A stretch of DNA of 52,327 nt from Burkholderiales bacterium (GCA_046590325.1 JBKJUC010000103.1:1-52327), one strand, 5' to 3'. Shown: positions 7,046 through 52,132, counted from the first letter of the stretch. Notes: generated by a model from the sequence alone, not told the origin. Made by a program: numbers and translations.

Positions 7046-7079
7046 GAATCACAGAGGGGATCCGTGTCCTCCGTGGTTC
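7046..7079. repeat. Collapsed remnant of the 9-bp-unit palindromic element
   Basis: GAATCACAGAGGGGA directly adjacent to TCCGTGTCCTCCGTGGTTC, between convergent genes. Confidence 0.5.
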
Positions 7080-7084
7080 AAGGT

Positions 7085-8266
7085 CTAAGTTTTAAGGCGG
7101 TATTTCTTTAGTATTTTCGGATCGAGCTCGATGCCGAGTCCGGGCGTATCGGGCAGTTCGATCTCGCCCTTCTTGTCAACGTTGAAGGGCTCTTTCACCA
7201 GTTCAGTCATCAATGCGTGCGCGGGATAGACTGTCTCGGCCATCGAGCCGTTGCGCACCGCGCCCAACAGATGCACCGCGGCGGCGACTGCGACTGCCGA
7301 ACCGTGGATGTGCGGCGCGATCGGCATGTTCGCTGCCTGCGCCATGTGCGCGATCTTCAGCGTTTCGGTGAGTCCGCCGGCCCAGGCTACGTCCGGTTGC
7401 ACGAAATGCACGGCGCGCGCCTTGATGTAGTCGTTGAAACCGACGATGCCGTAGCTGCAGGTCTCGTAGCCCGCGATGGCAATGCCGACCTTGGCCGTGA
7501 CTTCCACGCTGCCAGCGATGTCGTCCGGCCACACTGGTTCTTCGTACCAATAGATGTCGTACTTCTCCATCGCGCGGCCCATTTTGACGGCGGTGGTGAC
7601 GTCCCAGGCGCCATTGGCATCGACCATCAGTTTCACATCCGGGCCGATGGCATCGCGCACCGCGGCGACGCGCTTTAAGTCGTCAATCAGCGACACTTCG
7701 CACTGACCGCGGCTATCCATGACTCGTAGTGGTGACAACTCGATGCCGGGATTGCGCCCGACCTTCATCTTCACCGCGCGGAATCCGTGTCTGACGTAGG
7801 ACTCCATCTCTCGCGCCAGTTCCTTGATGCCCTTTCCTTCGGAGTAGAAGCCGCCTGTCGCGTAAGCGGTTACTCGCTTGCGATATCCGCCAAGCAGTTG
7901 CCACAGCGGCATGCCGGCGATTTTTCCGCGCAGATCCCACAGCGCGATGTCGATGCCGCTGATCGCCGCGATGACGATGCCGCCGCGAGCGTGCTTGTAA
8001 GCGCGCCGGTGCATCATCTCCCACAAGTACTCGATCTGGCGCGGGTCTTGTCCTATCAAGTAGTTGCGCAACTCATGCTCGATGACTTGTGCGGTGGAAG
8101 CCATCGGGCCGCCGAAGTGCGCGGCTTCGCCCAACCCGACAAGGCCCTGATCCGTTTCGACTTCGACGAGCAGCGCCGGCTTCGTCGCCATCGTGTAGTT
8201 GGCATCGAACACCGGTTTGGGAAGCTTGACTTCGACAGGAATGGTGCGGACGTCGGTGATGCGCAT
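7085..8266 (-). CDS. Mandelate racemase/muconate lactonizing enzyme family (enolase superfamily)
   Basis: AISGIDIALWDLRGK motif, KMKVG, metal ligands in MVDAN / YEEP / AGYE, C-terminal PGLGIELD. Confidence 0.92.
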   Translation of the reverse strand: MRITDVRTIPVEVKLPKPVFDANYTMATKPALLVEVETDQGLVGLGEAAHFGGPMASTAQVIEHELRNYLIGQDPRQIEYLWEMMHRRAYKHARGGIVIAAISGIDIALWDLRGKIAGMPLWQLLGGYRKRVTAYATGGFYSEGKGIKELAREMESYVRHGFRAVKMKVGRNPGIELSPLRVMDSRGQCEVSLIDDLKRVAAVRDAIGPDVKLMVDANGAWDVTTAVKMGRAMEKYDIYWYEEPVWPDDIAGSVEVTAKVGIAIAGYETCSYGIVGFNDYIKARAVHFVQPDVAWAGGLTETLKIAHMAQAANMPIAPHIHGSAVAVAAAVHLLGAVRNGSMAETVYPAHALMTELVKEPFNVDKKGEIELPDTPGLGIELDPKILKKYRLKT

Positions 8267-8402
8267 GAAAAAAATCTCCTCCGAATTATTTTTTTGTTGT
8301 CGCCCGCCGTGATGTTGCCAATCAGCGATTGCGTTGCTGAATATTTAGGCGGCCCTAACGAGAGGATAGGCGCCAGCACGGGTTTGCGCAAAATGCCGCG
8401 CG

Positions 8403-8437
8403 CCATCCACAAGGTTATCCACAGAATCTGTGGATAT
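8403..8437. promoter_or_regulatory. Cluster of DnaA-box-like 9-mers
   Basis: Perfect TTATCCACA at 8415-8423; inverted TGTGGATAT at 8429-8437 (1 mismatch); CCATCCACA at 8403-8411 (2 mismatches). Confidence 0.5.
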
Positions 8438-8482
8438 TTTTATGGCATGATTTTCGAAAAGTTCCGCGCGCGCTGCGCGATG

Positions 8483-8887
8483 TCAATGCTTCTTGCAAAA
8501 ATGCACCGACTGGAAACCGAGCCAACTCCAGGTGGTCGCGCGTGGCGGATCGTCGTCTTCGATGCGCCACGACTGCGGGCCGAAGAACGGGCCGGCGACC
8601 TGGTGTTCGCCCGGATCGCAAGCCTTCTCGCATTCGGGGACATGTTTCTGTGCTGCTTCAAGTGCTTTCTCGCGCCGCGAGTCGCGCGCGCGGTTGTAAG
8701 CCTCGAGTGCATCCTGTATCGCATCGTCGCCGATGCCGTTGCCAACCACTAATTCGTAAAAGAATTTTGCCATCGGCGGGCAGGCGAGCGCATCTTCGAT
8801 CGGCAGCGTCGCATAGGTTTTTTTCTTTTTGCCGCGCTTCTTGCCCCTGCTGTCAGCGCCGACCTTCCTGTCGCCCTTCTTTCCCAT
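8483..8887 (-). CDS. Hypothetical protein with Lys-rich N-terminus
   Basis: 134-aa ORF with GGAGA RBS upstream; fills an otherwise empty interval; no family recognised. Confidence 0.55.
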   Translation of the reverse strand: MGKKGDRKVGADSRGKKRGKKKKTYATLPIEDALACPPMAKFFYELVVGNGIGDDAIQDALEAYNRARDSRREKALEAAQKHVPECEKACDPGEHQVAGPFFGPQSWRIEDDDPPRATTWSWLGFQSVHFCKKH

Positions 8888-9061
8888 GACCGTCTCCAGA
8901 TGCCGTAAGAGATTCCCGATGAGTGGCCGCTAACCCGAATCGGTGCGAGCCTTTATATACACAGATTCGATTGCAGGCGCCATCTCGCGGCTGCGAGAAC
9001 GTGCGTGCCGTTGCTTATAATGATGTTGGACCCGAAGGATTTTTTCCAACCCCCGATTCAT

Positions 9062-9907
9062 ATGCCGAAATTCGCCGCCAACCTGCATTACCTGTTTGCC
9101 GAGGTTCCATTTCTCGATCGTTTCGAGGCGGCGGCGGAAGCCGGCTTCAAGGCCGTCGAGTTCCAGGTGCCGTATGACTACCCGAAAGCCGAGCTTGCCG
9201 CGCGCTTGAAGGCTCATGGCCTGAAGATGGTGCTGTTCGACGCCCCCATGGGCAGCTGGGACGCCGGTGATCGCGGCCTGACTGCAGTGCCTGGCCGCGA
9301 AGCGGAGTTTCGCGCCAGCCTGGCGAAAGTAGCGGAGTACGGCGAGGCGCTGCAGTGCGACACGGTGCACTCCATGGCCGGCGTGGTCGGTCCCGGACAG
9401 GACTACCAGGCCGCTGAACGCACTTATGTCGAAAACCTGCGATATGCCGCCGCCTTCCTGGAGCCGCGCGGCGTTGCCGTCGTCATCGAGCCCATCAACA
9501 AGAAGATGGGCATTGTGAAGAACGGCCCGGACTACACAACCCAGGGCATGCACGGCTATTTCCTGAATCATACCGAGCACGCCCGCCGGATCCTGGAGCA
9601 GGTCGGCCATCCCAATCTATTCCTGCACCTCGACATCTATCACATGCAGATGCTGGAGGGGCACCTGGGGGAGACCCTGGAGGCCCACATCGGCGTGACC
9701 CGTCATATCCAGATCGCCGGCGTGCCCGGACGCCACGAACCGACCGTTGGCGAGATCCATTACCCCTTCCTGTTCGACCTGCTGGACTCCCTGGGCTATG
9801 CCGGTTGGGTCGGCTGCGAATACCGGCCCAAGGGCAGTACCTGGGCTGGACTCGAATGGGGTACGAAGTATGGGATCAGCACCAGGGAGTCGAGTCGGAC
9901 GAAGTAA
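9062..9907 (+). CDS. Hydroxypyruvate isomerase family protein (Hyi/OtnI-like TIM barrel)
   Basis: MPKFAANL start, GFKAVEF, IEPIN, DIYHMQ, HIQIAGVPGRHEP, GWVGCEYRP motifs. Confidence 0.92.
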   Translation: MPKFAANLHYLFAEVPFLDRFEAAAEAGFKAVEFQVPYDYPKAELAARLKAHGLKMVLFDAPMGSWDAGDRGLTAVPGREAEFRASLAKVAEYGEALQCDTVHSMAGVVGPGQDYQAAERTYVENLRYAAAFLEPRGVAVVIEPINKKMGIVKNGPDYTTQGMHGYFLNHTEHARRILEQVGHPNLFLHLDIYHMQMLEGHLGETLEAHIGVTRHIQIAGVPGRHEPTVGEIHYPFLFDLLDSLGYAGWVGCEYRPKGSTWAGLEWGTKYGISTRESSRTK

Positions 9908-9916
9908 GTACTAACG

Positions 9917-10066
9917 GCCGTAAGAGCCGTGAATATCGTGAATGCCGGAAGGCACAAACGCGAAGGATCTGCGCGCTTTCGTGAGGCTAATCGCGCCAAT
10001 AGGTGCATGGAAGCCGTTACGACATTCACGATATTCACGGCACTCACGACAGTCACGACAGTCACG
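9917..10066. repeat. Palindromic element with 9-bp CGTGAATRY / RYATTCACG tandem arms
   Basis: Left GCCGTAAGAGCCGTGAATATCGTGAATGCCG; right ACGACATTCACGATATTCACGGCACTCACGACAGTCACGACAGTCACG. Confidence 0.8.
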
Positions 10067-10088
10067 TTTTTTTGCCCGGATTCCGGGC

Positions 10089-10122
10089 AAAAAAAAGAGG
10101 GCAGCCTTGCGGCGCCCTCTTT
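10089..10122 (-). terminator. Intrinsic terminator (minus strand)
   Basis: Minus strand AAAGAGGGCGCCGCAAGGCTGCCCTCTTTTTTTT: GC stem plus U8. Confidence 0.8.
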
Positions 10123-10210
10123 AAACCACGGTATCCCTAGAGGAGGAGGAGCGGATACGTGGGGGAGGAAGCTTTTCCCGTCGGGCCCGGCTTCCCGATC
10201 CGGGCCGTCT
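10089..10210 (-). ncRNA. Candidate 3'-UTR-derived sRNA with CUCCUCCUCCU loop
   Basis: Minus strand shows hairpin GGCCCGG..CCGGGCC, then UUCCUCCCC, then stem CCACG-UAUCC..GGAUAC-CGUGG enclosing GCUCCUCCUCCUCUAG, then the terminator. Confidence 0.45.
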
Positions 10211-10236
10211 TGCCTGAGTCGCTGCGTTGGGGCGGC

Positions 10237-10377
10237 TTACGGCAGGTAGGGGAAGGTGCTCGCGTCATGCGAAGCGGGGTCCAGAGCGCTCTCTGGCGTG
10301 GTTGTGGTGTTGGCCACCACCGTGTCGCGGAACTTCAATTCATAAAACCGGATCAGGGAATCAAGCAGCGTACCCAT
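10237..10377 (-). CDS. Unannotated 46-aa small protein
   Basis: GGAGGT RBS immediately before ATG; MGTLLDSLIRFYELKFRDTVVANTTTTPESALDPASHDASTFPYLP*; divergent from LysR gene and followed by a terminator. Confidence 0.6.
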   Translation of the reverse strand: MGTLLDSLIRFYELKFRDTVVANTTTTPESALDPASHDASTFPYLP

Positions 10378-10463
10378 ACGAACCTCCATCAAATCAGGCT
10401 GCATCCATCACTTCAGATGCCACAGTTCGCAATGTACGCTCATGCAAATAAATCGCCTAGATC

Positions 10464-10480
10464 ATCATGAAGCATATGAT
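10464..10480. promoter_or_regulatory. Dyad ATCAT-N7-ATGAT, candidate LysR operator
   Basis: Interrupted palindrome in the AT-rich divergent intergenic region between the small ORF and the LysR gene. Confidence 0.4.
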
Positions 10481-10530
10481 TTATGCAAATTTGATGATAA
10501 ATTATCAGGAGCTATTTTTGAAGGCAGGTG

Positions 10531-11481
10531 ATGGACAGACTCTACCAGATGCGGCTCTACACCCGGGTGGTCGAGACCGGAAGCTTCTCTGCGGTGGCCC
10601 GCGAACTGGGCACGATCCAGCCCACCATTAGCAAGCAACTTACTAGTTTAGAAGAACATTTAGGCGTCCGCCTGCTAAACCGGACCACCCGCCAGCTAAG
10701 CCCGACCGAAGCCGGCCGCAAGTACTACGAGCGCTGCAAGCGCATACTCGACGAGGTATCGGACCTCGAAGGCAGCCTGTCGGACCTGCAAACCCGGCCG
10801 ACAGGCATGTTAAGGGTCCATGCGGCCGTGGCATTTGGCCAGCTTTATATCCTCCCGGTGATGTTCAAGTTCCGGCGCCTTTACCCCGGTCTGGCCATCG
10901 ATCTGATGTTGTCCGACCGCTACGTAGACGTAATCCAGGAAGGCGTGGACGTGGCCATTCGCTTTGGCGAACTGCGCGACTCTCAACTCGTGGCCCGGCG
11001 AATCGGCGGCTCGACACGGGTCTGCGTGGCGAGTCCCGCTTACCTGCGCGCCCGGGGCACGCCGAAATCGCCGGGCGAGTTGTTCTCGCACAATTGCATT
11101 ACCTACAACTACCTGTTCAGCAATGAGTGGGAGTTCGACACCGGCAAGGGGCCGACTACGGTCCGGGTCGGGGGCGACTTCCGCGCTAACAGCGCCCTCA
11201 CCATCCGAGCGGCGGCGCTTGAGGGCATCGGCATCGCGCATATGCCTACCATGTTCGTGCAGGAAGACATCGATAAGGGTCGCCTGGTGCGCGTGCTGGA
11301 AGACTATGGCCCGCCCGCGGTGGACGTGCACGCGATCTACCCATCGGCGCGTTTTCTTTCCGGCAAGGTGCGCCTGTTCCTGGATTTCGTAAGCGAAGAA
11401 TTCAAGAACGCGCCCGCGCTGCAGGTCGATACCAAAAAGCCGAAGCGCGTGCCGCGCATCCGCGCCAAGGTTTCTTCTTAA
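10531..11481 (+). CDS. LysR family transcriptional regulator (CrgA/DmlR-like)
   Basis: GSFSAVARELG..QPTISKQLTSLEEHLGVRLLNRTTRQLSPTEAG HTH; EGVDVAIR; substrate-binding domain. Confidence 0.95.
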   Translation: MDRLYQMRLYTRVVETGSFSAVARELGTIQPTISKQLTSLEEHLGVRLLNRTTRQLSPTEAGRKYYERCKRILDEVSDLEGSLSDLQTRPTGMLRVHAAVAFGQLYILPVMFKFRRLYPGLAIDLMLSDRYVDVIQEGVDVAIRFGELRDSQLVARRIGGSTRVCVASPAYLRARGTPKSPGELFSHNCITYNYLFSNEWEFDTGKGPTTVRVGGDFRANSALTIRAAALEGIGIAHMPTMFVQEDIDKGRLVRVLEDYGPPAVDVHAIYPSARFLSGKVRLFLDFVSEEFKNAPALQVDTKKPKRVPRIRAKVSS

Positions 11482-11499
11482 TTGGAACGGGATCGAGCT

Positions 11500-12000
11500 A
11501 TGAGCGGGGAATCACCGAAGCAACTGGAAATCCGCAGCGCCGATGCGAAGGACCTGGCCATCATTCTCACTTTTATCCGGGAACTCGCCGAGTATGAGCA
11601 CCTGAGCCACCTGGTCACGGCCAGCGAAGAGGGATTGGGCGAATCGTTGTTCGGTAAGCAACCGGGCGCTGAAGTCGTGCTGGCTTTCGAAGGCAACGAG
11701 CCAGCCGGCTTCGCGGTCTTTTTCCACAATTTCTCCACATTCCTTGGCGTCAGGGGTTTGTGGCTGGAGGATCTGTTCGTGCGGCCCGCCTTCCGCGGCC
11801 GCGGCTACGGCAAAGCGTTGCTGCTTCACGTCGCGCGCATTGCCTGCGAGCGCGGCTGCGGCCGCTTAGAGTGGTCCGTCCTCGACTGGAACGAACCGTC
11901 GATCCGCTTCTACAAGTCGCTCGGCGCGCAGCCGCTGGACGACTGGACCATCATGCGCGTCACTGGTCACGCGCTTGAAGACCTCGCACGGATGAAATGA
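11500..12000 (+). CDS. GNAT family N-acetyltransferase (spermidine/spermine acetyltransferase-like)
   Basis: LWLEDLFVRPAFRGRGYGKALL, RLEWSVLDWNEPSIRFYKSLGA. Confidence 0.92.
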   Translation: MSGESPKQLEIRSADAKDLAIILTFIRELAEYEHLSHLVTASEEGLGESLFGKQPGAEVVLAFEGNEPAGFAVFFHNFSTFLGVRGLWLEDLFVRPAFRGRGYGKALLLHVARIACERGCGRLEWSVLDWNEPSIRFYKSLGAQPLDDWTIMRVTGHALEDLARMK

Positions 12001-12017
12001 TTCGCCCGTCTACCTCC

Positions 12018-12208
12018 TTTCACCGCAAAGACGCAAAGGGCGCAAAGGAATGCATAAGAAAATCGACAATCCCGAGGAGAGTAAACACCCAGCATGTCGA
12101 TATCACTGCCGATCTATTGTCTGATGAAATGTGGCATCGGCTTGCAGTCTCCCTTTCCACGCAATTGCTTTGGCCTTCCTTTGCGACCTTTGCGCCTTTG
12201 CGGTGAAA
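12018..12208. repeat. Palindromic element with 33-bp terminal inverted repeats of 9-bp CGCAAAG-type units
   Basis: TTTCACCGCAAAGACGCAAAGGGCGCAAAGGAA ... TTCCTTTGCGACCTTTGCGCCTTTGCGGTGAAA. Confidence 0.85.
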
Positions 12209-12423
12209 ATGGGCTTGGTACCCGCAGCAAGAACCGTGTGAGTGAAACCTTTGTCATGGCTGCCGTAAATAAAACCCTTGTAACCGGGGCGGGGGGTGGC
12301 ACTACAATACGCGCCGTGATCGGACGTGCCCGCAATTGCATCGAACTCCGGATGGCTGAAGCCCTCCAAGGGGCGTTGTCCCCCGAAAATTCCCAGGCCC
12401 GTCCTAACCAGAACCGTGTCGAT

Positions 12424-12447
12424 GCCGTCCCCGCGGACGGCTTTTTT
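12424..12447 (+). terminator. Terminator-like hairpin 30 nt upstream of parE
   Basis: GCCGTCC-CCGC-GGACGGC followed by TTTTTT. Confidence 0.6.
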
Positions 12448-12476
12448 ATTTCCTGCAGTATCGTGATCCGCTGACG

Positions 12477-14465: not shown

Positions 14466-14600
14466 GTGCTGCGCGCTGAGAGAAAGAGAAATCTTGAAAA
14501 TGCAGTTCACTATCTTTTCTTTTCGTTCGCTGGCTGGCTGCGCATCACGCAGCACTTAGATGCCGCTCTTTCCCGGCACCCGGCACACAGCATTCAGCCC
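14466..14600. repeat. Degenerate 7-bp-unit palindromic element (GGTGCTG / CAGCACC type)
   Basis: GGTGCTGCGCGCTGAG ... CCCGGCACCCGGCACACAGCATTCAGC between parE and parC. Confidence 0.5.
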
Positions 14601-14608
14601 CTTCGTTT

Positions 14609-17020: not shown

Positions 17021-17024
17021 TGCT

Positions 17025-18144: not shown

Positions 18145-18323
18145 TCACCACAGAGGCACAGAGGAAACAGAGGAATGCGGAACTCAGATTCAGGGGCGGC
18201 AGATAGGGTCCAGATTCGGCGGACGATCAGGAGAATCCCCGAAACATTGCACGACGTGACTCAATACATTCAGACTTTGTTCTTCCCTGTGCCCCCTGTA
18301 CCCCCCCTGTGCCTCTGTGGTGA
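18145..18323. repeat. Palindromic element with 9-bp CACAGAGG-type tandem arms
   Basis: TCACCACAGAGGCACAGAGGAAACAGAGG ... CCCTGTGCCCCCTGTACCCCCCCTGTGCCTCTGTGGTGA. Confidence 0.85.
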
Positions 18324-21218: not shown

Positions 21219-21243
21219 ATTCACGATATCCGCGACATTCACG
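21219..21243. repeat. Solo ATTCACG-type 9-bp repeat arm
   Basis: ATTCACGATATCCGCGACATTCACG, the reverse complement (1 mismatch) of 22003-22027. Confidence 0.7.
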
Positions 21244-21257
21244 GTATTTCACAATCC

Positions 21258-21998
21258 ATGGACTCTCCCACCCCTGCCGCCCTTCACGACCTCGCCCCTT
21301 CCGGCACGCTGCATGCCGCCATCAACACCGGCAACCCGGTGCTCGTCCAGCAGGATGCGGCGACCGGTGAATTGGCCGGCGTGACGGTGGACCTGGCGCG
21401 GGAGCTGGGACGCCTGCTCGATGTTCCGGTCGAACTTGTAACGTACAACGGGGCCGGCAAGGTATCTGACGCTGCCGGAAGCGGCGCCTGGAATGTCGCC
21501 TTCCTCGCCATCGATCCGGCTCGATCCGCGGCCATCCGCTTCACGGCGCCTTACGTGATCATCGAAGGCACCTGCATCGTCCGCGCGGACTCGCCCGACA
21601 TGACGATCGGCGACCTCGATCGTCCCGGCAAGCGCATCTCCGTGGTAAAGGGCGCGGCCTACGACCTGTACCTGACCCGCACTCTGAAGCATGCGCAACT
21701 GCTGCGAAAATCCACGTTCGAAGAGCAGATGGATCTGTTCCTGAACGAGCAGCTCGATGCGTCGGCTGGCGTGCGCCAGCCCCTCGAAGAATTCTCCCGG
21801 AACCACAAAGGCTTCCGCGTCCTCGAAGGCCGCTTCACCGAAATCCGCCAGGCCATGGGCGTTCCGCAGGGCCGCAACGCCGGCGCAAGCTACGTCGCCG
21901 AATTCCTCGACGAAATGAAGACCAGCGGGTTTATCGGCGAGGCGTTCAAGCGTGCCGGACAGGTGGGGGTCACGCTCGTCGGAGTGAAAAAAACGTGA
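21258..21998 (+). CDS. Orphan polar-amino-acid-type solute-binding protein (family 3)
   Basis: LAPSGTLHAAINTGNPVL, GVTVDLARELG, DPARSAAIRFTAPY, RISVVKGAAYDLYL; no obvious signal peptide and no adjacent permease. Confidence 0.85.
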   Translation: MDSPTPAALHDLAPSGTLHAAINTGNPVLVQQDAATGELAGVTVDLARELGRLLDVPVELVTYNGAGKVSDAAGSGAWNVAFLAIDPARSAAIRFTAPYVIIEGTCIVRADSPDMTIGDLDRPGKRISVVKGAAYDLYLTRTLKHAQLLRKSTFEEQMDLFLNEQLDASAGVRQPLEEFSRNHKGFRVLEGRFTEIRQAMGVPQGRNAGASYVAEFLDEMKTSGFIGEAFKRAGQVGVTLVGVKKT

Positions 21999-22195
21999 AT
22001 GTCGTGAATATCGCGGATATCGTGAATATCGTAAACACGACAATGCGATACGGCTGAGGGGCGAAGGACTGAGAAAGCTATAGGCTCTCTGGCCGTTACG
22101 TCTCGTTGCGGCCTTAAGCCGCTAGTTCTGCAGTATCTCGAAGGTAGCTCGTGCAGTCGTAGTTTCTACGACATTCACGACATCCGCGATATTCA
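21994..22195. repeat. Palindromic element with 9-bp CGTGAATRT tandem arms
   Basis: CGTGAATGTCGTGAATATCGCGGATATCGTGAATATCGTA ... TACGACATTCACGACATCCGCGATATTCA. Confidence 0.85.
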
Positions 22196-24638: not shown

Positions 24639-24682
24639 GCAGCTCTAACTCTGAACCTTAGACCCGCAACTCTCTAAACCTT

Positions 24683-24741
24683 TTCACCGCAGAGGCGCAG
24701 AGGATTCGCTTCTATACCCGCCGTGAGGGGTACGCAGAGGA
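24683..24741. repeat. Solo left arm of 9-bp CGCAGAGG-type element
   Basis: TTCACCGCAGAGGCGCAGAGGA...ACGCAGAGGA; no complementary arm found. Confidence 0.6.
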
Positions 24742-24909
24742 AGGCGAAGAACAGGGAAGTAAGAAGTGCTCCGGGTAAGCATGAACGGCATCACTCAACG
24801 GTGGATGGAGGCGATCCCATCGCATGCGACTACCCTGCCATCCTCATCGCGTTTGCTTCTGTCCTCCCCAGCGACGCTGCGGTGAAAACAATCTGTTTTC
24901 AGGCAATGA

Positions 24910-30747: not shown

Positions 30748-30786
30748 AAACGCCCCGACCGCTTCAGCGATGGGGGCGTTTTTATT
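30748..30786 (+). terminator. Intrinsic terminator
   Basis: AAACGCCCC...GGGGCGTTT followed by TTATT. Confidence 0.7.
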
Positions 30787-30800: not shown

Positions 30801-31007
30801 ACCACGAAGGCACGAAGGACCCGAATACCCTCGCGTCAGCGTGGAGTACCCTTTTAGGGACGCCACGGAAATCAACAGCAAGGGAAGGGTCGGTGTATCA
30901 GTTGTGCTTCTGCCGGCCGTGCCAAATTTACTGAAGATGGTGCATCAGGCCATCGCATACTTCTCGCACTTCTTCGTGCTACTTCGTGTTCTTCGAGCCT
31001 TCGTGGT
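30801..31007. repeat. Palindromic element with 9-bp CACGAAG-type tandem arms
   Basis: ACCACGAAGGCACGAAGGAC ... CTTCGTGCTACTTCGTGTTCTTCGAGCCTTCGTGGT. Confidence 0.8.
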
Positions 31008-33422: not shown

Positions 33423-33517
33423 CGGTACCTTCCGGAAACGAGCCCACTAAATGAAACGCCCCGGTTGTTTTCACGATCGGGGCGTCCTGGAGAACCTGGC
33501 AGCGGTACCTGCCGGAA

Positions 33518-40633: not shown

Positions 40634-40767
40634 AGTGCTGAGTGCTGTGTGCTGAGAAGGGGTAACGCTCGCTACACACAGAACCAGTTTAAGAAATGGA
40701 ACGATCTGGAACTAAAGTGCATGTCGATTGCCCAGCACCCAGCACCCAGCACCCAGCACCCAGCACC
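40634..40767. repeat. Palindromic element with 7-bp GTGCTGA / CCAGCAC tandem arms
   Basis: AGTGCTGAGTGCTGTGTGCTGAG ... (CCAGCAC)x5. Confidence 0.85.
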
Positions 40768-44289: not shown

Positions 44290-44418
44290 GGCGGAGAGCC
44301 GGCATTGTGCCCGGTTACGCCCGCGGAATCGACAGTGACATCCCGCTTTCGCCGTTCAGGACGACGAAAGCGGAAGCCGTGATCTGGAACAGCCGCTACG
44401 ACTTGCCGGTGTTACGCA

Positions 44419-44565: not shown

Positions 44566-44776
44566 GACAGCCTCCGGGATAAATTGCTACGTCGCCAATA
44601 TGCTGCCTGCAAGCATCCCGCGGAAGACAGGTGGGCGGCATACCAGCTATGCCGTGAATGCATGAGCGAAGCGGGCAGCGGCTGGCAGGGCGTACAATCT
44701 CGCCGCACGGGATTTGTCCTGTGGCACGAACACCCGGCAGTCCTGACGGATCCAGTACATCAAGGAGGAGATTTCG

Positions 44777-45535
44777 ATGAATGCTGCAAATGCTTCCGTG
44801 AGGCCCATAGGCAGATGGCTGGTGAACGCCGGTCTGGTCGTCGCGCTGGCCAGTGCTTTTGCCATGATCTTTTCAGGCATCGGCTACCAGTTCGGCCTCT
44901 GGCACTTCCGCACCGGCTTCGCAATCATGGGCTGGGCGTTCTGGTTTGCAGCGGGCGGTGCGATCGTTTCCCTCATCGGGCTGTTCCTTGCGGCGCCCAG
45001 GCCGCCAAAGCTGGTTGCTGCCGCCGTGATCGGCATTGTCGTCGGCGCGTCCACGGCGTACATTCCCTGGAGCTACAAGCAGACGGTTGGCAAGCTTCCC
45101 TACATTCACGACATCACTACGGATACGCAGAATCCGCCGGCATTCGTTGCAGCGAAAAACCTGCGAAAGGAGGGCGATCACCCGGTCGAGTACGACGGGC
45201 CCGAAGTGGCGGCGCAGCAGCAGAAAGCTTATCCCGACCTGATGCCGCTGACCGTGGCTGCTGACAAGGACAGAGTCATGAAGGCGGCCGAGACTGCCCT
45301 CAAGTCGATGAAACTGGAAATTACCGACGCCAACGCCGCCGAGGGCCGCATTGAAGCGGTGGCAACCACACTGCTATACGGATTCAAGGACGACATGGTG
45401 GTGCGTATCGCAGCGGAGGGCGCGGGCACAAAAATCGATGCGCGTTCCAAGTCGCGTGTCGGCCGCAGCGACGTGGGCCAGAACGCCAAGCGCATCCGCG
45501 TTTTTCTCCAGCGCCTCAAAGCAAACCTCGGCTAG
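44777..45535 (+). CDS. DUF1499 domain protein
   Basis: RBS AAGGAGG, three TM helices, PYIHDITTD..NPPAF, QQKAYPDL, GFKDDMVVRI, DARSKSRVGRSDVGQNAKRI. Confidence 0.88.
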   Translation: MNAANASVRPIGRWLVNAGLVVALASAFAMIFSGIGYQFGLWHFRTGFAIMGWAFWFAAGGAIVSLIGLFLAAPRPPKLVAAAVIGIVVGASTAYIPWSYKQTVGKLPYIHDITTDTQNPPAFVAAKNLRKEGDHPVEYDGPEVAAQQQKAYPDLMPLTVAADKDRVMKAAETALKSMKLEITDANAAEGRIEAVATTLLYGFKDDMVVRIAAEGAGTKIDARSKSRVGRSDVGQNAKRIRVFLQRLKANLG

Positions 45536-45551
45536 CCGTTAACAGAGGCCT

Positions 45552-45750
45552 TTCACCGCAAAGGGCGCAGGGGACGCAAAGGAAAAACAAGAACGAAGAA
45601 GAGCATGCCTGGATGATGAGCGGCGTATCTGTTCACGGGTCTGTGCAGCCAACCCCACTGGATTGGACCATCAGCCATTGAACACCTGTACCACAAGTTT
45701 ATTCTTTGCTCTTGCTTTTCCTTTGCGTCCCCTGCGTCCTTTGCGGTGAA
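45552..45750. repeat. Palindromic element with 35-bp terminal inverted repeats of 9-bp units
   Basis: TTCACCGCAAAGGGCGCAGGGGACGCAAAGGAAAA ... TTTTCCTTTGCGTCCCCTGCGTCCTTTGCGGTGAA (1 mismatch). Confidence 0.88.
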
Positions 45751-45771
45751 CATTTTTCTGCAGACAGTTTA

Positions 45772-46185
45772 TTAGAACGCCAGAGGCTTGCGGTCCTGCA
45801 GCGTGAGCCAGCCGCGGGCGACGCGGTAGATCACCCAGATCCCTGCGCCGAGGAACACCGCCCAGGCGACCAGGATTCCGACGATCGTGACGACGAGCAG
45901 CACGCCCAGCCCGACCCAGAGCAGGGCGAACCAGAACGTACGGATCTGCCACCGGAAATGGGACTCCAGGAATGTCTCGCGCACTTTGGACTGGTAAATG
46001 TAGTTCATTACCACGGCGACGATGGACGGGATGCCGAACACGAAGGCGCCGACGATCGTTACTGCACTGGTCAGTCCGATCAGGATGCTCAGCGAATGCA
46101 GGCCGTAGATGATGTGGCCGATCGTGATCAGCGAAGGCCGCGGCGCGCCCATCGCATCCGCTGCAGAGAGTTGCGTATTCTCCAT
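45772..46185 (-). CDS. DUF4870-like small membrane protein
   Basis: HIIYGLH, SHFRWQIRTFW, WVIYRVARGW motifs; three TM helices. Confidence 0.82.
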   Translation of the reverse strand: MENTQLSAADAMGAPRPSLITIGHIIYGLHSLSILIGLTSAVTIVGAFVFGIPSIVAVVMNYIYQSKVRETFLESHFRWQIRTFWFALLWVGLGVLLVVTIVGILVAWAVFLGAGIWVIYRVARGWLTLQDRKPLAF

Positions 46186-46195
46186 TCAGGATCCC

Positions 46196-49100
46196 CTACT
46201 CTTGTGGCCGGGCTTCGAGCGCCGGCGTGTCATGGATGCGCCGGCGCGCGCGCCATTGCTGGAACTGCTCAAGGTACAGGTAAACCACCGGCGTGATGTA
46301 CAGCGTCAGGAGTTGCGAAACGATCAGGCCGCCGACGACGGCGAGGCCAAGCGGCTTGCGCGCCTCGGCGCCGGCCCCGAGCCCCAGCGCGATCGGCAGG
46401 GTGCCCATCAGGGCAGCCATGGTGGTCATCATGATCGGCCGGAAACGGATGATGCAGGCGTCGTAGATCGCCTTCGCCGGGTCGGCGCCGTCGCGGCGCT
46501 GCGCGTCGAGGGCGAAATCAATCATCATGATCGCGTTCTTCTTGACGATTCCGATCAGCATGATGAGGCCGACGAAACCGTACATATTCAGATCCATTTT
46601 GAACAGGATCAGCGTGAGCAGCGCGCCGAAGCCCGCCGTTGGCAGGCCGGACAGGATGGTGATCGGATGGATGTAGCTTTCGTAGAGAATGCCCAGAATC
46701 AGGTAGATCACGAAAACCGACATGAGCAGCAGCATGCCCATGCCGGCCAGCGATGACTGGAAGGCCTGCGCCGTACCCTGGAAGTTGCCGATCAGCGTCG
46801 GCGGGATGCGCAATTCGGCGACGATGCCGTTCACCTGCGAAATTGCCTCGCTCAACGCGACGCCGGGCCGGAGGTTGAACGAAATCGTCACCGCCGGCAA
46901 CTGGCCCTGGTGGGCGACCGTCAGCGGGCTGACGCCGCGGCCGATACGGGCTACCGCAGAGAGGGGCACCAGCGCGCCGGTGCTGGAGCGCACGTACAGC
47001 ATCGACAGCGCTTCCGGGCTGTCCTGGTATTCGGGCGCAAGTTCGAGGATGACCCAGTATTCGTTGCTGGGCGTATAGATGGTGGAAACCTGGCGGGAAC
47101 TGAAGGCGCTGTAGAGCGCATCCTCGATCTGCTCGGCAGTCACGCCCAGTGTCGAGGCCTTGTCGCGTTCGATTTCGATTTTCACCGTCGGGTTGGTGAT
47201 CTGCAGGTCGCTGTTGACGTCGACGAAGCCGGACAGGCCGCGAATCCTTTGTTCCAGGATCGGCGCCCAGTAGTAGAGCTCGGCCGTATCCGCGTCCTGC
47301 AGCGTGTACTGGTATTCGCTCTTGGTCACCTTGCCGCCGATGCGCACCGGCGGGATGTTCTGCGGATAAACCTTGAGGCCCGGGATGACCGACAGTTTTG
47401 GCCGCAGTTCCTGGATGACCGAGTCGGCGACCAGGCGCTCGTTGCGAGCCTTCAGCTTCACCAGGATGCGGCCCAGGTTGAGCGTTTGGCTGGAGCCGGA
47501 CGTCGAGGAGGGGCCGATGAACGCCATCACGCTTTCCACGTTCGGGTCGGCGCGGATGATGTTCGCGGCCTGACGCTGTTTCGCGGCCATTGCCTCGAAG
47601 GAAATGTCCTGTGCCGCTTCCGTGAACACCAGCAACTGGCCAGTGTCGGTGCTGGGCAGAAAGCCCTTGGGCGTGATCTGGAACAGCCATGCGGTGGCGG
47701 CAAAGATCGCCGCGAACAGGAGCATGACGATGCGGTGGTGCCGCAGCGCCCACTTGAGCGTCACGTCATAGAGGTCGCGCATGGAGTCGAAGGCGCGTTC
47801 ACTCCATTGGTAAAGGCGGCCGTGTTTTTTCTGGTGTTCGGGGCGCAGCCAGCGGCTGCACAGCATCGGTGTAAGGCTCAGCGAGACGAATCCGGAGACC
47901 AGCACGGCTGCCATGATGGTGACGGCGAACTCGTGCAGCAGCTTGCCCAGGATGCCGCTCATGAACAGCACGGGAATGAACACGGCGGCGAGCGAGAGCG
48001 TCATGGAAACGATGGTGAAGCTCACCTCGCGTGCGCCATCAAGGGTCGCCTGCATTGGCGACTTGCCCATTTCCAGATGGCGGTTGATGTTCTCCAGCAT
48101 CACGATGGCGTCATCCACGACGAAGCCCACGCACAGGGTGAGGGCCATCAGCGAGATGGTGTTGAGGCTGAATCCCGCCAGGTACATCACGGAGAACGTG
48201 CCGACGATCGACATCGGCAGTGCCAGGCTCGGAATCAGCGTGGCCGAAAGGTTGCGCAGGAACAGGAAGATCACCAGCACCACCAGGACCAGGGCCAGGA
48301 TCAGCGTGAACTGCACGTCGTGCACCGAATCCCGCACCGAGATCGAACGGTCGTAGAGGATTTCCATTTCCAGTCCGGCCGGCGCCTGGGCGCGGAAGGT
48401 GGGCAGCAGCTTCTTGATGGTATCGACGATTTCGATGGTGTTGGTGCCCGGCTGGCGCTGGATCGAGATCACGATGCCGCGTTCGTCGTTGTACCAGGCG
48501 GCGACCTTGTCGTTCTCCACGCCGTCGATGACGCGCCCGATCTCGCTCATCCGCACCGGCGCACCGTTGCGCCAGGCCACCACCACCGGGCGGAATCCCG
48601 CCGCATTCTGCAGCTTGCCGTTCGATTCCACCGTATAGGCGCGATGCGCCCCGTAAAGCGTGCCCGTCGGCAGGTTCGAGTTCTGGTGGCTGATGGCATC
48701 GGCGACTTCATCGATGCCGATGCCGCGTGAAGCCAGGGATTTCGGATCGAGCTGGATGCGCACGGCGTATTTCTGCGAACCGATGACCTGTACCTGCGCG
48801 ACGCCGCTCACCGTTGAAATGCGCTGGGCCAGCAGCGTTTGCGCATATTCGTCTACCGTCGTAAGCGGCAAGGTCTTCGAGGTCAGCGCCAGGTAGAAAA
48901 TCGGCGCGTCCGCCGGATTCACTTTCTGGAACGACGGCGGCGTGGTCATCTGCGGCGGCAACTGGCGGGCCGCGCGGGTGAGGGCGGCCTGCACATCCTG
49001 CGCGGCGGCATCGATGCTGCGATCCAGGGAAAACTGCATGGTGATGCGCGTCACGCCCATCGCGCTGTTGGAATCCATCGATTCCAGTCCGGCAATGGTG

Positions 49101-49315
49101 GAAAACTCCTTCTCCAGTGGCGTGGCCACCGCGGAAGCCATGGTTTCCGGGCTCGCGCCCGGCAGCGAAGCGGCCACGGCGATGGTGGGGAAATCCATGT
49201 TGGGCAGGTCAGAGACCGGCAGCAGCCGGTAGCTGAAGATGCCGAACATCAGGATGCCGATCATGACCAGCCCGGTCATGACCGGGCGGCTGACGAAGAC
49301 CGCGACGAAATTCAA
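46196..49315 (-). CDS. RND efflux permease, MdtB/MdtC-like
   Basis: TTG start overlapping upstream TGA; RPV, PGASPETMAS.VATPLE, GFVVDDAIV, GIVKKNAIMMIDFA, RFRPIMMTT, GGLIVSQLLTLY. Confidence 0.93.
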   Translation of the reverse strand: MNFVAVFVSRPVMTGLVMIGILMFGIFSYRLLPVSDLPNMDFPTIAVAASLPGASPETMASAVATPLEKEFSTIAGLESMDSNSAMGVTRITMQFSLDRSIDAAAQDVQAALTRAARQLPPQMTTPPSFQKVNPADAPIFYLALTSKTLPLTTVDEYAQTLLAQRISTVSGVAQVQVIGSQKYAVRIQLDPKSLASRGIGIDEVADAISHQNSNLPTGTLYGAHRAYTVESNGKLQNAAGFRPVVVAWRNGAPVRMSEIGRVIDGVENDKVAAWYNDERGIVISIQRQPGTNTIEIVDTIKKLLPTFRAQAPAGLEMEILYDRSISVRDSVHDVQFTLILALVLVVLVIFLFLRNLSATLIPSLALPMSIVGTFSVMYLAGFSLNTISLMALTLCVGFVVDDAIVMLENINRHLEMGKSPMQATLDGAREVSFTIVSMTLSLAAVFIPVLFMSGILGKLLHEFAVTIMAAVLVSGFVSLSLTPMLCSRWLRPEHQKKHGRLYQWSERAFDSMRDLYDVTLKWALRHHRIVMLLFAAIFAATAWLFQITPKGFLPSTDTGQLLVFTEAAQDISFEAMAAKQRQAANIIRADPNVESVMAFIGPSSTSGSSQTLNLGRILVKLKARNERLVADSVIQELRPKLSVIPGLKVYPQNIPPVRIGGKVTKSEYQYTLQDADTAELYYWAPILEQRIRGLSGFVDVNSDLQITNPTVKIEIERDKASTLGVTAEQIEDALYSAFSSRQVSTIYTPSNEYWVILELAPEYQDSPEALSMLYVRSSTGALVPLSAVARIGRGVSPLTVAHQGQLPAVTISFNLRPGVALSEAISQVNGIVAELRIPPTLIGNFQGTAQAFQSSLAGMGMLLLMSVFVIYLILGILYESYIHPITILSGLPTAGFGALLTLILFKMDLNMYGFVGLIMLIGIVKKNAIMMIDFALDAQRRDGADPAKAIYDACIIRFRPIMMTTMAALMGTLPIALGLGAGAEARKPLGLAVVGGLIVSQLLTLYITPVVYLYLEQFQQWRARRRIHDTPALEARPQE

Positions 49316-50430
49316 GAAGTCTTCTCCGGCGCCTTCACGCTCAAGCGGGTGCCGGGCAGGATGCGCGAGGCGCCGTCGACCACCACGGTTTCGCCGGCAG
49401 CGACACCGCCCACCAGCACGGTTTCCTCGCCTTCGGTGCGCGCGACCTCGACTGCGCGCAGTTCCGCGCTGGAGTCGGACTTGACCACGTAGACGTACTG
49501 TCCCTTCGGACCCGTCTGCAAGGCCTGCGTCGGCACGACGAGCGCTCTGTCCTCGTCGCGCAGCGAGACCCAGGCATCCACGAACTGCCCCGGCCAAAGA
49601 TCCTTCTCCCGATTGTCGAAAATACCACGCAGTTTGATGGTGCCGGTGCTGACGTCGACCGAGTTGTCGATGAAGGCGAGCTTCCCGGGCAGGGTCCTGC
49701 CGTCCTTTTCGAGCGCAGCCTCGATGCGCAAGGGCGCGGCCTTCTGCCGGGTGCGGATTTCGTTGAGGTACTGCTGCGGCACGGCGACACTGATGTAGAT
49801 CGGGGAGAGCTGGTTGATGACCAGCATCTGCGCCGTATCGTTACCCTTGACCAGATTGCCCTCGGAGAGCATGACCTTGCCAATGCGGCCCCGGATCGGT
49901 GCGCGGATCGTGGTGTAGCCGAGGTTCACGCGTGCATGCTGGACGGCGGCCTCATTGGCTTTCACGCTGGCTTCGGCGCCGCGGAAATTGGCGGCAACCT
50001 GGGCGTAGCCTTCCTTCGATACGAAATTCTGCTTCAGCAGGTCCTGGTAGCGCTGTTCCTGGCCCTTCAGGTAATCGAGCTGCGCCTGGTCGTGGTCGAG
50101 GTTGGCCTGAGCCTGCTGGAGTTGCGACTGATAGGGCTTCGGATCGAGCTGGAACAGCAGGTCGCCGGCCGCTACGTCCTGGCCGTCACGCACATGGACA
50201 TGCGTAATCTGTCCATCCACTCGCGCTTTCACCGCCACGGAAGCAATGGTCTCCACATTGCCGATCGCGTGCAGGCGCAGTGGCATGCTCTTCTCGACAA
50301 CCTGCGCAACTAGCACGGGCACGCTGGGCGGTAATTTCTTCGCCTCGGCTTGGGCGCCATTCTTGTCGGAACAGGCGCCCAGCGTGGTGGCGGCAATCAG
50401 CGCGCTGGCGATAAGGAGAATGCTGCGCAT
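49312..50430 (-). CDS. RND efflux periplasmic adaptor (MdtA-like lipoprotein)
   Basis: Lipobox LGAC, VKARVDGQI, TTIRAPIRGRIG, FIDNSVDVSTGTIKLR, LWPGQFV. Confidence 0.92.
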   Translation of the reverse strand: MRSILLIASALIAATTLGACSDKNGAQAEAKKLPPSVPVLVAQVVEKSMPLRLHAIGNVETIASVAVKARVDGQITHVHVRDGQDVAAGDLLFQLDPKPYQSQLQQAQANLDHDQAQLDYLKGQEQRYQDLLKQNFVSKEGYAQVAANFRGAEASVKANEAAVQHARVNLGYTTIRAPIRGRIGKVMLSEGNLVKGNDTAQMLVINQLSPIYISVAVPQQYLNEIRTRQKAAPLRIEAALEKDGRTLPGKLAFIDNSVDVSTGTIKLRGIFDNREKDLWPGQFVDAWVSLRDEDRALVVPTQALQTGPKGQYVYVVKSDSSAELRAVEVARTEGEETVLVGGVAAGETVVVDGASRILPGTRLSVKAPEKTS

Positions 50431-50545
50431 CGCCTTCGGTCGGGAATAGAGTCCCAAGGGTAAAGCCCTCCGTGGTACCACATGACAATTCGCAATTCTG
50501 CTCCAATTGACCGTAATGCGCCTGTCGCGTCCTTTCCTCCAACCC

Positions 50546-52132
50546 TTATTTTGGCGTGGCTTTTGGTGCGGCAGGTTTTTCCGTTCTGGAAGCGTTGCGG
50601 CGCGCCAGATCGTCATTCGCATGCAGGTCGGAGGCTTTCCAGCCGCCGCCCAGCGCCTTTATTAGCGCCACGCTGGCGGCGAGGCGGCGATTGCGGATGT
50701 CCACAGCGTTGCGCTCGACGTTGAGCGCCGAGGCCTGTACCACGATCACATTCAGGTAACTGACGAGGCCGGCCTTGTACTGGTTGGTGGTCAGCAGCAC
50801 CGACTGGCGCGCCGACTGCACGGCTTCTTCCTGGATGCGCGCTTCCTCTTCGAGGATGCGCAGCGCCGCGAGGTTGTCCTCGACTTCCTTGAAACCGGTG
50901 AGCACGGTCTGGCGGTAGAAGGCGACGTTGGCGTCGTAGGCCGCAACGGCATTGTCGGATACGGCGCGCCGCGCGCCGCCGTCGAACAAGGTTTGCGCCA
51001 GCGCGGGCCCCACCGACCAGAACCGGTTCGGCGCGGAGATCAGGCCGGAAAGCACGGAGCTCTGGAAGCCCGCTGCGGCGGAAAGTGTCAGTGTCGGGTA
51101 GTACGCGGCTCTGGCCACGCCGATGTCCGCGTTGGCCTGCGCCATGCGCCGTTCCGCCGTGGCGATGTCGGGCCGGCGCTCAAGAAGATCGGAGGGCATG
51201 CCTGGCGGAACGTAGGGTGGTTCCGCAACAAGTGGCGCAGGCGCGATGGTAAAACTGGATGCGGGCTTGCCGATCAGCAATGCGATGGCGTGCTCGAGTT
51301 GCGCACGCTGCACGCCCGTATCCAGCGCCTGCGCCTGCGTGGCCTTGAGCTGGGTTTGCGCCTGCACCACGTCAGCTTTCGCCACGATGCCGGCAGCGTA
51401 CTGGTTCTCCGTCAACTTGAGTGATCTCTCGTAGGCGACGACCGTGTCGTCGAGCAACTGTCTCTGGGTATCGAGCGAGCGCAACTGGAAATAGTTCGTC
51501 GCGAGCTCCGCTTGCGCTGACAGGCGCAATGATTCCAGGTCGGCGGCGCTGGCCTGGGCGCCGGCCTCGCTGGATTCGGCGCTGCGGCGCACCCGGCCCC
51601 AGAGGTCGAGTTCCCAGGCGGCATCGACGAATATCGAATAGCTGTTGCGCACACCCCGGTCGATGCTGTTGCCCGACGCGGACGCGCGAGAACGGTCGGC
51701 CGATGCGCCCGCGGATACGGTAGGAACATAGCCAGCCCGCGCCGATTGCACCAGCGTGCGCGCCCGGCGAAACTGCGCTTCGGCCAGCGCCAGGTTCTGG
51801 TTGGAAATGGAGACCTGCTCCTGCAGGCCGCTGAGCAGCGGGTCGTTGAACGCTTCCCACCAGTTGCCCCGCAACACGCCGTCGCGCGGCTGCGCCTCTT
51901 TCCAGCCTTCCTTGAAGGCGGCAGGCGTCTCGGTGTCCGGCCGCACATAGTCCGGCCCTACCGTGCAGGCTGTCAGTAACGCCAGCACCGGAATGATCGC
52001 GAACAATCTCAGCCGCAGGTCCTGAACCACGGAGAGCACGGAGGAAAACCAGACCACGAAACGAAACATGAACATTGTCATTTCAGCATTGCTCCGTGAA
52101 CTCCGTGCTGTCCATGGTTCGAGGTTTTTCAT
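50546..52132 (-). CDS. RND efflux outer-membrane factor lipoprotein (NodT/OprM family)
   Basis: [13 protein letters not shown] lipobox, [36 protein letters not shown]. Start uncertain; ATG 52132 overlaps the upstream stop. Confidence 0.92.
52024..52120. repeat. Palindromic element with 9-bp CACGGAG-type arms inside the 5' end of the OMF ORF
   Basis: GAACCACGGAGAGCACGGAG ... CTCCGTGAACTCCGTGCTGTCCATGGTTC (20-bp IR, 2 mismatches). Confidence 0.8.

Follow-up and report, generated by a model that had tools for sequence, protein, structure and literature searches.

The window analysed here, a stretch of 52,327 nucleotides from a Burkholderiales bacterium (GCA_046590325.1), is contig C20 of a 3.69-Mb assembly in 275 contigs with 62% G+C, and this genome is referred to as G000. 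The window holds at least 12 short palindromes whose arms are built from tandem units of 7-9 bases. We call these units words and the palindromes word-armed elements, with a G-rich arm (G arm) and its inverted counterpart (C arm); those with words of the form CRCRRAG are called CRCRRAG elements. An earlier reading made from the sequence alone had placed a dispersed family of such palindromes in the window, and each element that it named was recovered in place by direct reading, by an inverted-repeat search or by both, together with further members built of other words (4260-4345, 9914-10053, 21219-21248, 21994-22195 and 40634-40767). The arms found by the inverted-repeat search are 20-49 nt long and 83-95% complementary. 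On the strand presented, the elements are:

4260-4345: short word-armed palindrome of 86 bp with 7-mer words, AGGTTAA-type in the G arm and CTTTTAC-type in the C arm (TRF array pair).
7046-7079: collapsed CRCRRAG element in which a single G word (CACAGAG) is parted from two C words by a 4-nt centre; convergent open reading frames (ORFs) on either side (direct reading).
9914-10053: word-armed palindrome of CGTGAATNT 9-mer words, arms 37 nt and 84% complementary (inverted-repeat search).
12018-12208: CRCRRAG element, CGCAAAG subfamily, arms 12018-12061 and 12165-12208, 44 nt, 86%.
18145-18323: CRCRRAG element, CACAGAG subfamily, arms 18145-18164 and 18304-18323, 20 nt, 95%; the right arm is degenerating into G/C runs.
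21219-21248: lone C-type arm of the CGTGAAT word family (ATTCACGAT units), without an upstream G arm.
21994-22195: word-armed palindrome of CGTGAATAT/CGCGGATAT 9-mer words (CGTGAATNT-type), arms 37 nt, 86%.
24681-24888: decayed CRCRRAG element with CGCAGAG words, G arm intact and C arm degenerate; 24-nt arms, 83%.
30801-31007: CRCRRAG element, CACGAAG subfamily, arms 30801-30825 and 30983-31007, 25 nt, 88%.
40634-40767: word-armed palindrome with AGTGCTG 7-mer words (TRF array pair).
45552-45750: CRCRRAG element, CGCAAAG subfamily, arms 45552-45600 and 45702-45750, 49 nt, 92%.
52024-52120: short CRCRRAG element, CACGGAG subfamily, with ends TGAACC...GGTTCG, at the 5′ end of the window's last ORF (direct reading).

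The element at 12018-12208 lies between a 172-aa ORF and a parE/gyrB-like gene, ends in TTTCACC...GGTGAAA and has three words per arm around a unique interior of about 100 nt. At this site no word-armed palindrome was seen in 20 more distant relatives of the genus. The 172-aa ORF (11482-12000), which sits just upstream, aligns in 8 of 20 genus relatives (e.g., G002, G023 and G001); in the other 12 it is unaligned, and the upstream gene adjoins the promoter region of the parE/gyrB-like gene. The element at 45552-45750 ends in TTCACC...GGTGAA, its arms run on into a purine-rich tail, and convergent ORFs lie on either side. What had been read as a solo arm at 24683 is a decayed full copy, whose degenerate second arm lies at 24865-24888 (24 nt, 83%). 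The sole partner found for the lone arm at 21219-21248 is the next element's G arm, at a distance of 749 nt. Just within the G arm of the 30801-31007 element is an unrelated small hairpin repeat (ATACCCT...GGAGTACCCTTTTAG). A small hairpin repeat of approximately AAAAGGGTACTCC-(loop)-GGGTATYC, which lies inside or directly next to the C or G arms of word-armed elements, occurs at 30826-30870 and again in relative L028 and in a close relative's copy of the 52024-52120 element; its degenerate 9-nt core has 114 matches on both genome strands, many of them probably due to chance. Separately, a terminator-like hairpin, ACGCCCCGACC...GGGGCGTTTTT, is found at 30750-30781, 20 nt upstream of the 30801 element, with an inverted near-copy at 33454-33485.

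Two independent scans of G000 indicate that the window samples a large genomic population. The first looked for adjacent tandem TRF arrays of period 7-9 whose units are reverse complements, and it returned 396 array pairs, 300 of them spanning 300 bp or less. The second looked for inverted repeats with periodic arms, and it returned 332 elements compared to 18, 19 and 23 in three block-shuffled genomes. The union catalogue contains 392 elements that cover 58,967 bp. When a CRCRRAG arm is defined as a run of at least two CRCRRAG words at spacings of 7-11 nt, and arms are paired if they lie within 400 nt of each other, G000 has 463 such arms, which form 193 pairs in the order G arm then C arm and 2 in the opposite order, with 77 arms unpaired. 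Triple-word CRCRRAG arms number 214, whereas the reversed pattern gives 0. The G-rich arm is 5′ for all word types, as the 5′ arm contains more G than C in 291 of the 300 short pairs, and the window copies have the same organization of inverted tandem-CRCRRAG arms with the G-rich arm 5′ on either strand. The description of a dispersed, non-autonomous family is supported. The elements mostly avoid genes, as overlap with coding sequence (CDS) is below 20% in 302 of 391 elements in a genome that is 86% coding according to a crude GC3-based gene call, and 245 elements lie between co-directional genes.

CRCRRAG elements share a compact design. They span a median of 161 bp (10th-90th percentile 132-193), with three words per arm as the mode, and proceed from an outer end motif (e.g., TTCACC, TTAACC or TTGGC) through about three CRCRRAG words at 8-9-nt spacing and a purine-rich tail to the centre, followed by the mirror image. 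After the last word, both arms have a conserved GAAA(R)C and then a T-poor purine tail, and the purine content drops smoothly from 0.78 to 0.22 across the interior, leaving a unique centre of roughly 50-100 nt. By majority word, the 193 copies fall into subfamilies of CACAGAG (57), CGCAAAG (54), CGCAGAG (23), mixed CGCAGAG/CGCGGAG (17), CGCGGAG (7), CACGAAG (5) and CACGGAG (4). Outer ends are preferred by subfamily, with TTTGC/TTGGC for CACAGAG, TTCAC/TTAAC for CGCAAAG and CTCAC/CCCAA/CTCAA for CGCAGAG. The sequence-only reading had given ACCRCRRAG as the start of every intact copy, which applies to 95 of the 193; the first word of the rest is preceded by GC (50), AA (26), GA (12) or other sequence (10). 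It had also described the unit as differing in each copy. Such differences are seen, but most are explained more simply by subfamilies, the larger of which have tens of copies each. Runs of seven or more CGCAAAGG(C/A) words, longer than any arm in G000, occur in the genus relative G020 (C52:7492-7552 and C233:7347-7416), so single arms can expand greatly.

In contrast to the shared arms, the interiors are almost all unrelated to each other, as had been proposed for the window copies. For 176 of the 193 CRCRRAG copies, no similar loop was found at E<=1e-3, and in the other word families loops with a similar loop number 13/105, 10/99, 4/41, 3/27 and 6/16. Loop-only folding gives a median z of -0.17 and thus no unusual structure. 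We considered capture of interiors from elsewhere in the same genome and rejected it, because 234 of 298 trimmed interiors have no other genome match, and the 64 non-self matches fall within other elements in 50 cases (long arms, probably), in intergenic sequence elsewhere in 12 and in CDS in 2. At the palindrome boundaries, direct repeats of 2-8 nt that could represent target-site duplications are at or below expectation (k=2: 5 compared to 13.9 expected; k=4: 0). Miniature inverted-repeat transposable elements, or MITEs, are likewise short and non-coding, with terminal inverted repeats, many intergenic copies and longer gene-carrying relatives. The word-armed elements differ from them in having neither a target-site duplication nor a shared interior, in being related to a gene that is not a known transposase, and in having arms made of tandem repeats. 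The unique interiors and lack of target duplications thus agree with the earlier view that these are not ordinary copy-paste MITEs.

The longer relatives of these elements connect the words to two small protein families. Five small cargo genes were found in G000, three encoding the TIGR02436/PF05635 four-helix bundle ('23S IVS protein', where IVS stands for intervening sequence) and two encoding the TIGR04256/PF13366 GxxExxY protein, and all five are enclosed by inverted word arrays. Both GxxExxY genes (C26:6230-6580 and C44:10306-10653) lie between CRCRRAG arms, and such full-length members carry a GxxExxY protein of 120-125 aa. None of the window copies has a GxxExxY ORF between its arms, and their interiors have no trace of one, so the window copies are gene-less relatives and not full members. 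Of 37 genomes of the genus, 29 have GxxExxY matches and 32 have matches to the four-helix bundle, many of which are fragmentary or stop-bearing; these tallies include the unpublished genome G049, whose loci are outside the locus-level analysis. At the level of loci, 27 of 30 GxxExxY genes have a gene-spanning inverted repeat with CRCRRAG words in 27/27, whereas 29 of 31 four-helix-bundle genes have a spanning inverted repeat with CRCRRAG words in 0/29. This sister set is built from other words, which include GGTGAAA, GGTGACG, GGGGATT, GAGGGGC, GGCACTA, AATGGGC and CGTGAATNT/CGTGACTNT; in the window, the word type at 4260-4345 is one linked to four-helix-bundle genes, and the CGTGAATNT word family at 9914-10053 is one that flanks PF05635 genes.

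The association between GxxExxY and CRCRRAG words extends well beyond the genus. Among 80 GxxExxY loci from many phyla and some archaeal metagenome-assembled genomes (protein identity 52-67%), 67 have a spanning inverted repeat. Strict CRCRRAG words occur at least once in 49 of these and at least twice in 38, and the end is usually AACC or CACC. A link between such arms and GxxExxY genes, which the sequence-only reading had offered from recall, is thereby borne out for both G000 genes, for the armed genus genes and for most of the cross-phylum loci. Two archaeal metagenome-assembled genomes, L120 (Methanosarcinales) and L193 (Methanophagaceae), encode GxxExxY proteins that are 56-63% identical to betaproteobacterial ones, and the L120 gene also has word arms of the AACC-CGCAGAG type; this suggests either whole-cassette transfer between domains or bin contamination. 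Among 50,697 phage records no GxxExxY match was found, and of 72,556 plasmid records only 5 have one, most of these being very large replicons. Within the genus, triple-word arms range from 2 to 214 per genome, with G000 the highest and 0-1 for the reversed-pattern control. The arm count follows the presence of GxxExxY in 36 related genomes (Spearman rho 0.58), with a median of 94.5 in those with the gene (n=28) and 6.5 in those without (n=8), a correlation that is descriptive because the genomes are kin and not independent.

D67, E77 and K79 are invariant in the alignment of GxxExxY proteins, and the AlphaFold2 model (pLDDT 94.9) matches PD-(D/E)XK nucleases at Z 6.8-8.1 in VIA-align (Cas4 SSO0001, BpuSI 8.1; Hjc 6.8). 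The modelled fold is thus that of a PD-(D/E)XK nuclease, with matches generic enough that no specific subfamily can be named; no solved relative was found in the PDB by sequence, and Foldseek returned none at E<=0.001. In the genus protein tree, the A/G word subtype is clustered, with 11 changes compared to 14.4 after shuffling and none of 200 shuffles as low. Because the words are unchanged while the protein falls to approximately 55% identity across phyla, the words appear to be under functional constraint, and the plainest reading is that something reads them. Most likely, judging from this conservation, the word array is read by a trans-acting protein, for which the GxxExxY nuclease is the prime candidate.

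Within single copies, the two arms mirror each other more than chance would give. The majority words of the left and right arms are concordant in 150 of 193 copies, and exact complementarity is seen in 394 of 527 word pairs. For the 119 copies whose words are mixed, the order of words is mirrored at 203 of 332 positions compared to 172 +/- 6.9 for shuffled right arms, and 0 of 2000 shuffles reach 203. Spacers between words also match in 190 of 334 cases, compared to 66 +/- 6.4 when arms are re-paired across copies. The earlier statement that the arms co-vary within each copy therefore stands with respect to word order and spacers, but pairing is imperfect, as only 22 of 193 copies pair perfectly over the first 25 nt (6.6 expected). 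A templated origin of the mirrored arms at the DNA level is possible. The symmetry would most likely be set by fold-back copying or by template switching at a hairpin while the element is made or repaired, and correction of quasipalindromes by template switching is established (PMC7202029).

Comparison with G017, a genus member that is about 95% identical to G000 over collinear stretches, shows how quickly these elements turn over. A site was considered orthologous when both 200-nt flanks of a G000 element map to one place in the 1.15 Mb of G017 compared. Of 76 mapped sites, 8 have the same element, 2 have a diverged but homologous one, 20 are empty or collapsed (<60 nt between flanks) and 46 contain 60 nt or more of unrelated sequence. 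At least 30 of these 46 carry another word-armed inverted repeat, 25 with a different word and 5 with the same or a near word. The 16 sites without a called word-armed repeat are not negatives, since they include elements visible by eye; the automatic caller missed the 12018 site, C162:4456, C183:7147 and C245:382. In the reverse direction, 51 G017 elements comprise 11 conserved, 7 empty and 33 unrelated cases. The sites called empty are mostly remnants by eye (a lone arm, a mini-hairpin or another small repeat), and as a result no precise insertion boundary can be derived from them. Collapsed forms like that at 7046-7079 were also found at sites that are 'empty' in G017, and the remnants indicate that the collapsed copy at 7046-7079 and the lone arm at 21219 are ordinary end states.

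The window contains examples of both retention and replacement. At the 12018 site, G017 has a CACAGAG-word element with an unrelated interior, and at 40634-40767 it has 74 nt with AAAAGGT-type words. The element at 18145-18323 is orthologous; its interior is as alike as the flanks (by eye), and its right arm differs by an indel of 11 nt. The lone arm at 21219-21248 is identical in G017. Those at 4260-4345 and 21994-22195 are kept with interiors 94.7% and 95.4% identical, respectively, the latter differing by two units (18 nt) in the left arm and one (9 nt) in the right. The interior of 30801-31007 is 88% identical over 78% of its length, and 52024-52120 (interior 96.9% identical) has in G017 one extra word and a 36-nt insertion of the small AAAAGGGTACTCC-type hairpin repeat. 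Outside the window, C245:382 is occupied in G000 by a gene-less CGCAAAG element and in G017 by a full GxxExxY cassette with CACGGAG arms. Over the 8 retained pairs, flanks differ by 5.9% mismatches, arms by 4.9% and loops by 5.2%, with 0.9, 15.6 and 7.9 gap events per kb, respectively, and unit numbers shift independently in the two arms. On this comparison, resident copies drift neutrally and slip, being neither protected nor hypermutated. Taken with the unique interiors and the turnover, neutral drift points to youth as the basis of arm likeness among copies, and to interiors that probably differed already at origin.

Our analyses are best accounted for, with moderate confidence, by viewing the window elements as gene-less relatives of small palindromic cassettes of the IVS type, which are young, turn over fast and are non-autonomous. 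In this account, each copy would have arisen recently with its own interior and with arms that mirror each other, and the likeness of arms among copies would reflect recent origin from a diverse pool instead of selection on each resident hairpin. The word array would be read in trans, probably by the GxxExxY nuclease, and loss would proceed by deletion at the hairpin to leave lone arms and mini-hairpins. If transcribed, the stems may be RNase III substrates like those of rRNA IVSs, as a by-product and not as the cause of persistence. Several observations weigh against this account. The genome G043, which is 100% complete, has 42 triple-word arms and no GxxExxY match, and G012 and G048 have 77 and 107 such arms and likewise none. 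In G000, approximately 200 CRCRRAG elements accompany only 2 GxxExxY genes, and none is cognate to CACAGAG, which with 57-60 copies is the largest subfamily. Word subtype switches repeatedly among close proteins, with CGCAAAG in at least four places in the tree, so the protein cannot read the R positions strictly. Cargo families also replace each other at the same site, for example where C98:733 has CGCAAAG words in G000 and GGGACGA words, of the other cargo type, in G017, which argues for a shared or host-driven targeting step that is not cargo-specific. Divergence in the flanks is higher around replaced or lost sites than around retained ones (5-12% compared to 3-5% at 50-1200 nt), so homologous recombination that brings in whole alleles may account for some of the exchange. 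Moreover, both G000 and G017 are metagenome-assembled, neither movement nor a donor-recipient pair was seen, and the narrow size peak of CRCRRAG elements is left without explanation. The account also does not explain how unique interiors of fixed size are acquired or how residents are displaced at the same site.

The closest known counterpart of these cassettes is the IVS of 23S rRNA in Leptospira and Coxiella, an insertion of about 430-440 nt that carries an S23p ORF, is cleaved by RNase III at its terminal stem of 28 bp and has been discussed as a possible mobile element (PMC4990558). Both are small cassettes with terminal inverted repeats and a long stem around an ORF of about 120 aa of the PF05635 family, with sporadic distribution and suspected horizontal spread by no known mechanism of mobility (PMC4990558), and the four-helix-bundle cassettes of G000 (428-615 bp) have the same size and cargo as the IVS. 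The stems of the window elements exceed the 20 bp expected of an IVS at the upper end of their range and reach it at the lower. In contrast, the CRCRRAG elements are gene-less, present in hundreds of copies and armed with tandem words. They lie between protein-coding ORFs, with no rRNA match in the window, and not at helix 25 or 45 of 23S rRNA, and their full-length relatives carry PF13366, while PF05635 is enclosed by the sister elements with other words. The available excerpts of the IVS accounts make no mention of tandem-word arms, gene-less copies or a GxxExxY counterpart (PMC4990558). Elsewhere, PF05635 genes have been noted within cas operons (PMC3936711), and PF13366 is listed as a family of unknown function with multiple transfers (PMC3424549). 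In the searched literature on GxxExxY, PF13366 and PF05635/TIGR02436, which mostly leaves out subscription journals, the available text does not state the word-arm rule or the gene-less copies, an absence that is unproven; under the same coverage, no paper was found that joins 'intervening sequence protein' with inverted repeats and tandem units.

A bolder proposal, which we regard as doubtful, would make word-armed hairpins a distinct class of mobile DNA that extends from bacteria into archaea. A tiny PD-(D/E)XK nuclease or an Avd-like four-helix bundle would read a tandem-word code, and a hairpin-templated step would give both mirrored arms and a new interior. Residents would be displaced at fixed intergenic 'nests' in a form of cassette exchange without integrase or transposase, and the 23S rRNA IVS, the cyanobacterial short tandemly repeated repetitive (STRR) sequences and the Xanthomonas heptamer pairs would be facets of the same phenomenon. 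Apart from this proposal, integron attC sites share features with the word-armed elements, being imperfect palindromes, conserved in structure over sequence, that bound small cassettes exchanged at fixed places. However, attC sites are single sites in arrays beside an integrase and not paired tandem-word arms, and no integrase link to the word-armed elements was seen, though no search for one was made.

Two alternatives appear unlikely to about the same degree. The first is that the elements are RNA-structural, with arms that form transcript stems (RNase III sites, protectors of mRNA ends or terminators) and are kept by selection on pairing, which the sequence-only reading had put forward as one means of maintenance. 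The RNase III cleavage of the Coxiella IVS stem (PMC4990558) and the very stable predicted stems are in keeping with this view, as is the excess of elements between convergent genes (74/342, 22% compared to 14%) and their scarcity between divergent ones (23/342, 7% compared to 15%). Selection on pairing is opposed, however, by arms that diverge like flanks and are prone to indels in the 8 orthologous pairs, by the failure of 66 of 76 sites to keep the element at ~95% identity, and by a balance of G.U and A.C mismatches, with no G.U excess in the sense orientation of cassettes (24 compared to 23; 20 compared to 35). In addition, TTTT is present in the 20 nt downstream of the C arm in only 29 of 193 copies, Rfam at gathering thresholds gives 0 matches in the window, and the word design and the G-arm-first rule are unaccounted for. 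The second is that every gene-less copy is a gene cassette with an internal deletion, and that gene-less copies never spread alone. Truncated or stop-bearing GxxExxY and four-helix-bundle matches are indeed common in the genus, and the cassette and gene-less states of C245:382 could be read in this way, though their words differ. A 315-bp element at C230:8002-8316 even retains a C-terminal GxxExxY trace (E 0.002). This is the sole match below E 0.01, and the other 349 of 350 interiors are without a trace; with tblastn of 61 genus cargo proteins, 26 matches at E<1 compare to 31 in the reversed control, and a first pass with 5 cargo proteins gave no signal above control, its early matches being translated arms. 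The relic view is further opposed by bimodal sizes, with a narrow peak near 160 bp and few elements between ~230 and 420 bp, and by about 100 gene-less copies per gene.

A very unlikely alternative is that the elements are local products, with arrays made by slippage in place and palindromes by template switching, as by-products of hotspots and not as a mobile family. Unit number does change fast, template-switch correction of quasipalindromes is established as noted above, and heptamer arrays in other bacteria have been described in such terms. In Xanthomonas, GGGAATC arrays, including 70 convergent pairs, have been read as G-quadruplex-forming simple repeats unlinked to mobile elements (PMC4692102), and for the TAACTGA heptamers of Beggiatoaceae and cyanobacteria the mechanism is described as not evident (PMC4679880). 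These arrays and the cyanobacterial STRR resemble the present elements in being intergenic tandem 7-nt units with many copies per genome (PMC4692102, PMC4679880), and in this genus four-helix-bundle genes, too, have G-rich heptamers on their flanks, GGGGATT among them; as far as the excerpts go, they have been described as simple repeats, G-quadruplex formers or translational signals and not as cassette arms. CRCRRAG units measure 8-9 nt, and the 7-mer families of G000 (105 pairs) fit the heptamer description but form paired inverted arms. Local origin is difficult to reconcile with words and end motifs that recur at hundreds of sites and across phyla, with the tie of one word set to one protein family, and with the absence of reversed-pattern matches.

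Movement of REPIN-like elements by a REP-associated tyrosine (Y1) transposase (RAYT; REP, repetitive extragenic palindrome) is hardly credible. Two PF01797 matches in the genome (C64:2771-3100 and C147:15285-15614) speak for it, but no word arm was seen beside them in the ~300-900 nt towards lower coordinates and the 200-900 nt towards higher ones, and the word families are tied to GxxExxY and four-helix-bundle genes instead. REP/REPIN-RAYT systems are similar in their abundant intergenic, hairpin-forming palindromes and their hypothesized single-copy trans-acting protein, but REPs are conserved units of 20-40 nt, REPIN spacers are conserved, and the partner is a repeat-flanked Y1 gene, whereas the Y1 genes here are not associated with the elements. 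We accordingly rejected a RAYT link for the stretches inspected. Both PF01797 matches lie in ORFs of ~290 aa, and the C64 gene has next to it a GCCCACTGCGGGGTCAG-like repeat in doublet form; gene and repeat look like a separate pair of the REP/RAYT type with no relation to the word-armed elements.

If gene-less relatives of IVS-like cassettes are indeed what the window contains, PF13366 GxxExxY and PF05635, two very common small proteins without an assigned function, would gain a context as the cargo, and perhaps the engine, of a family of palindromic cassettes. The same would explain the origin of rRNA intervening sequences and the heptamer and nonamer arrays found between genes in many phyla. 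Gene-less copies occupy 1.6% of G000 DNA and most of each intergenic gap in which they are present. Word arrays of this kind interfere with the prediction of terminators, CRISPR arrays, G-quadruplexes and small RNAs and also cause breaks in assemblies. Because unique interiors and same-site exchange fit no described route of transposition, these elements offer a tractable entry to a possibly new form of DNA movement.

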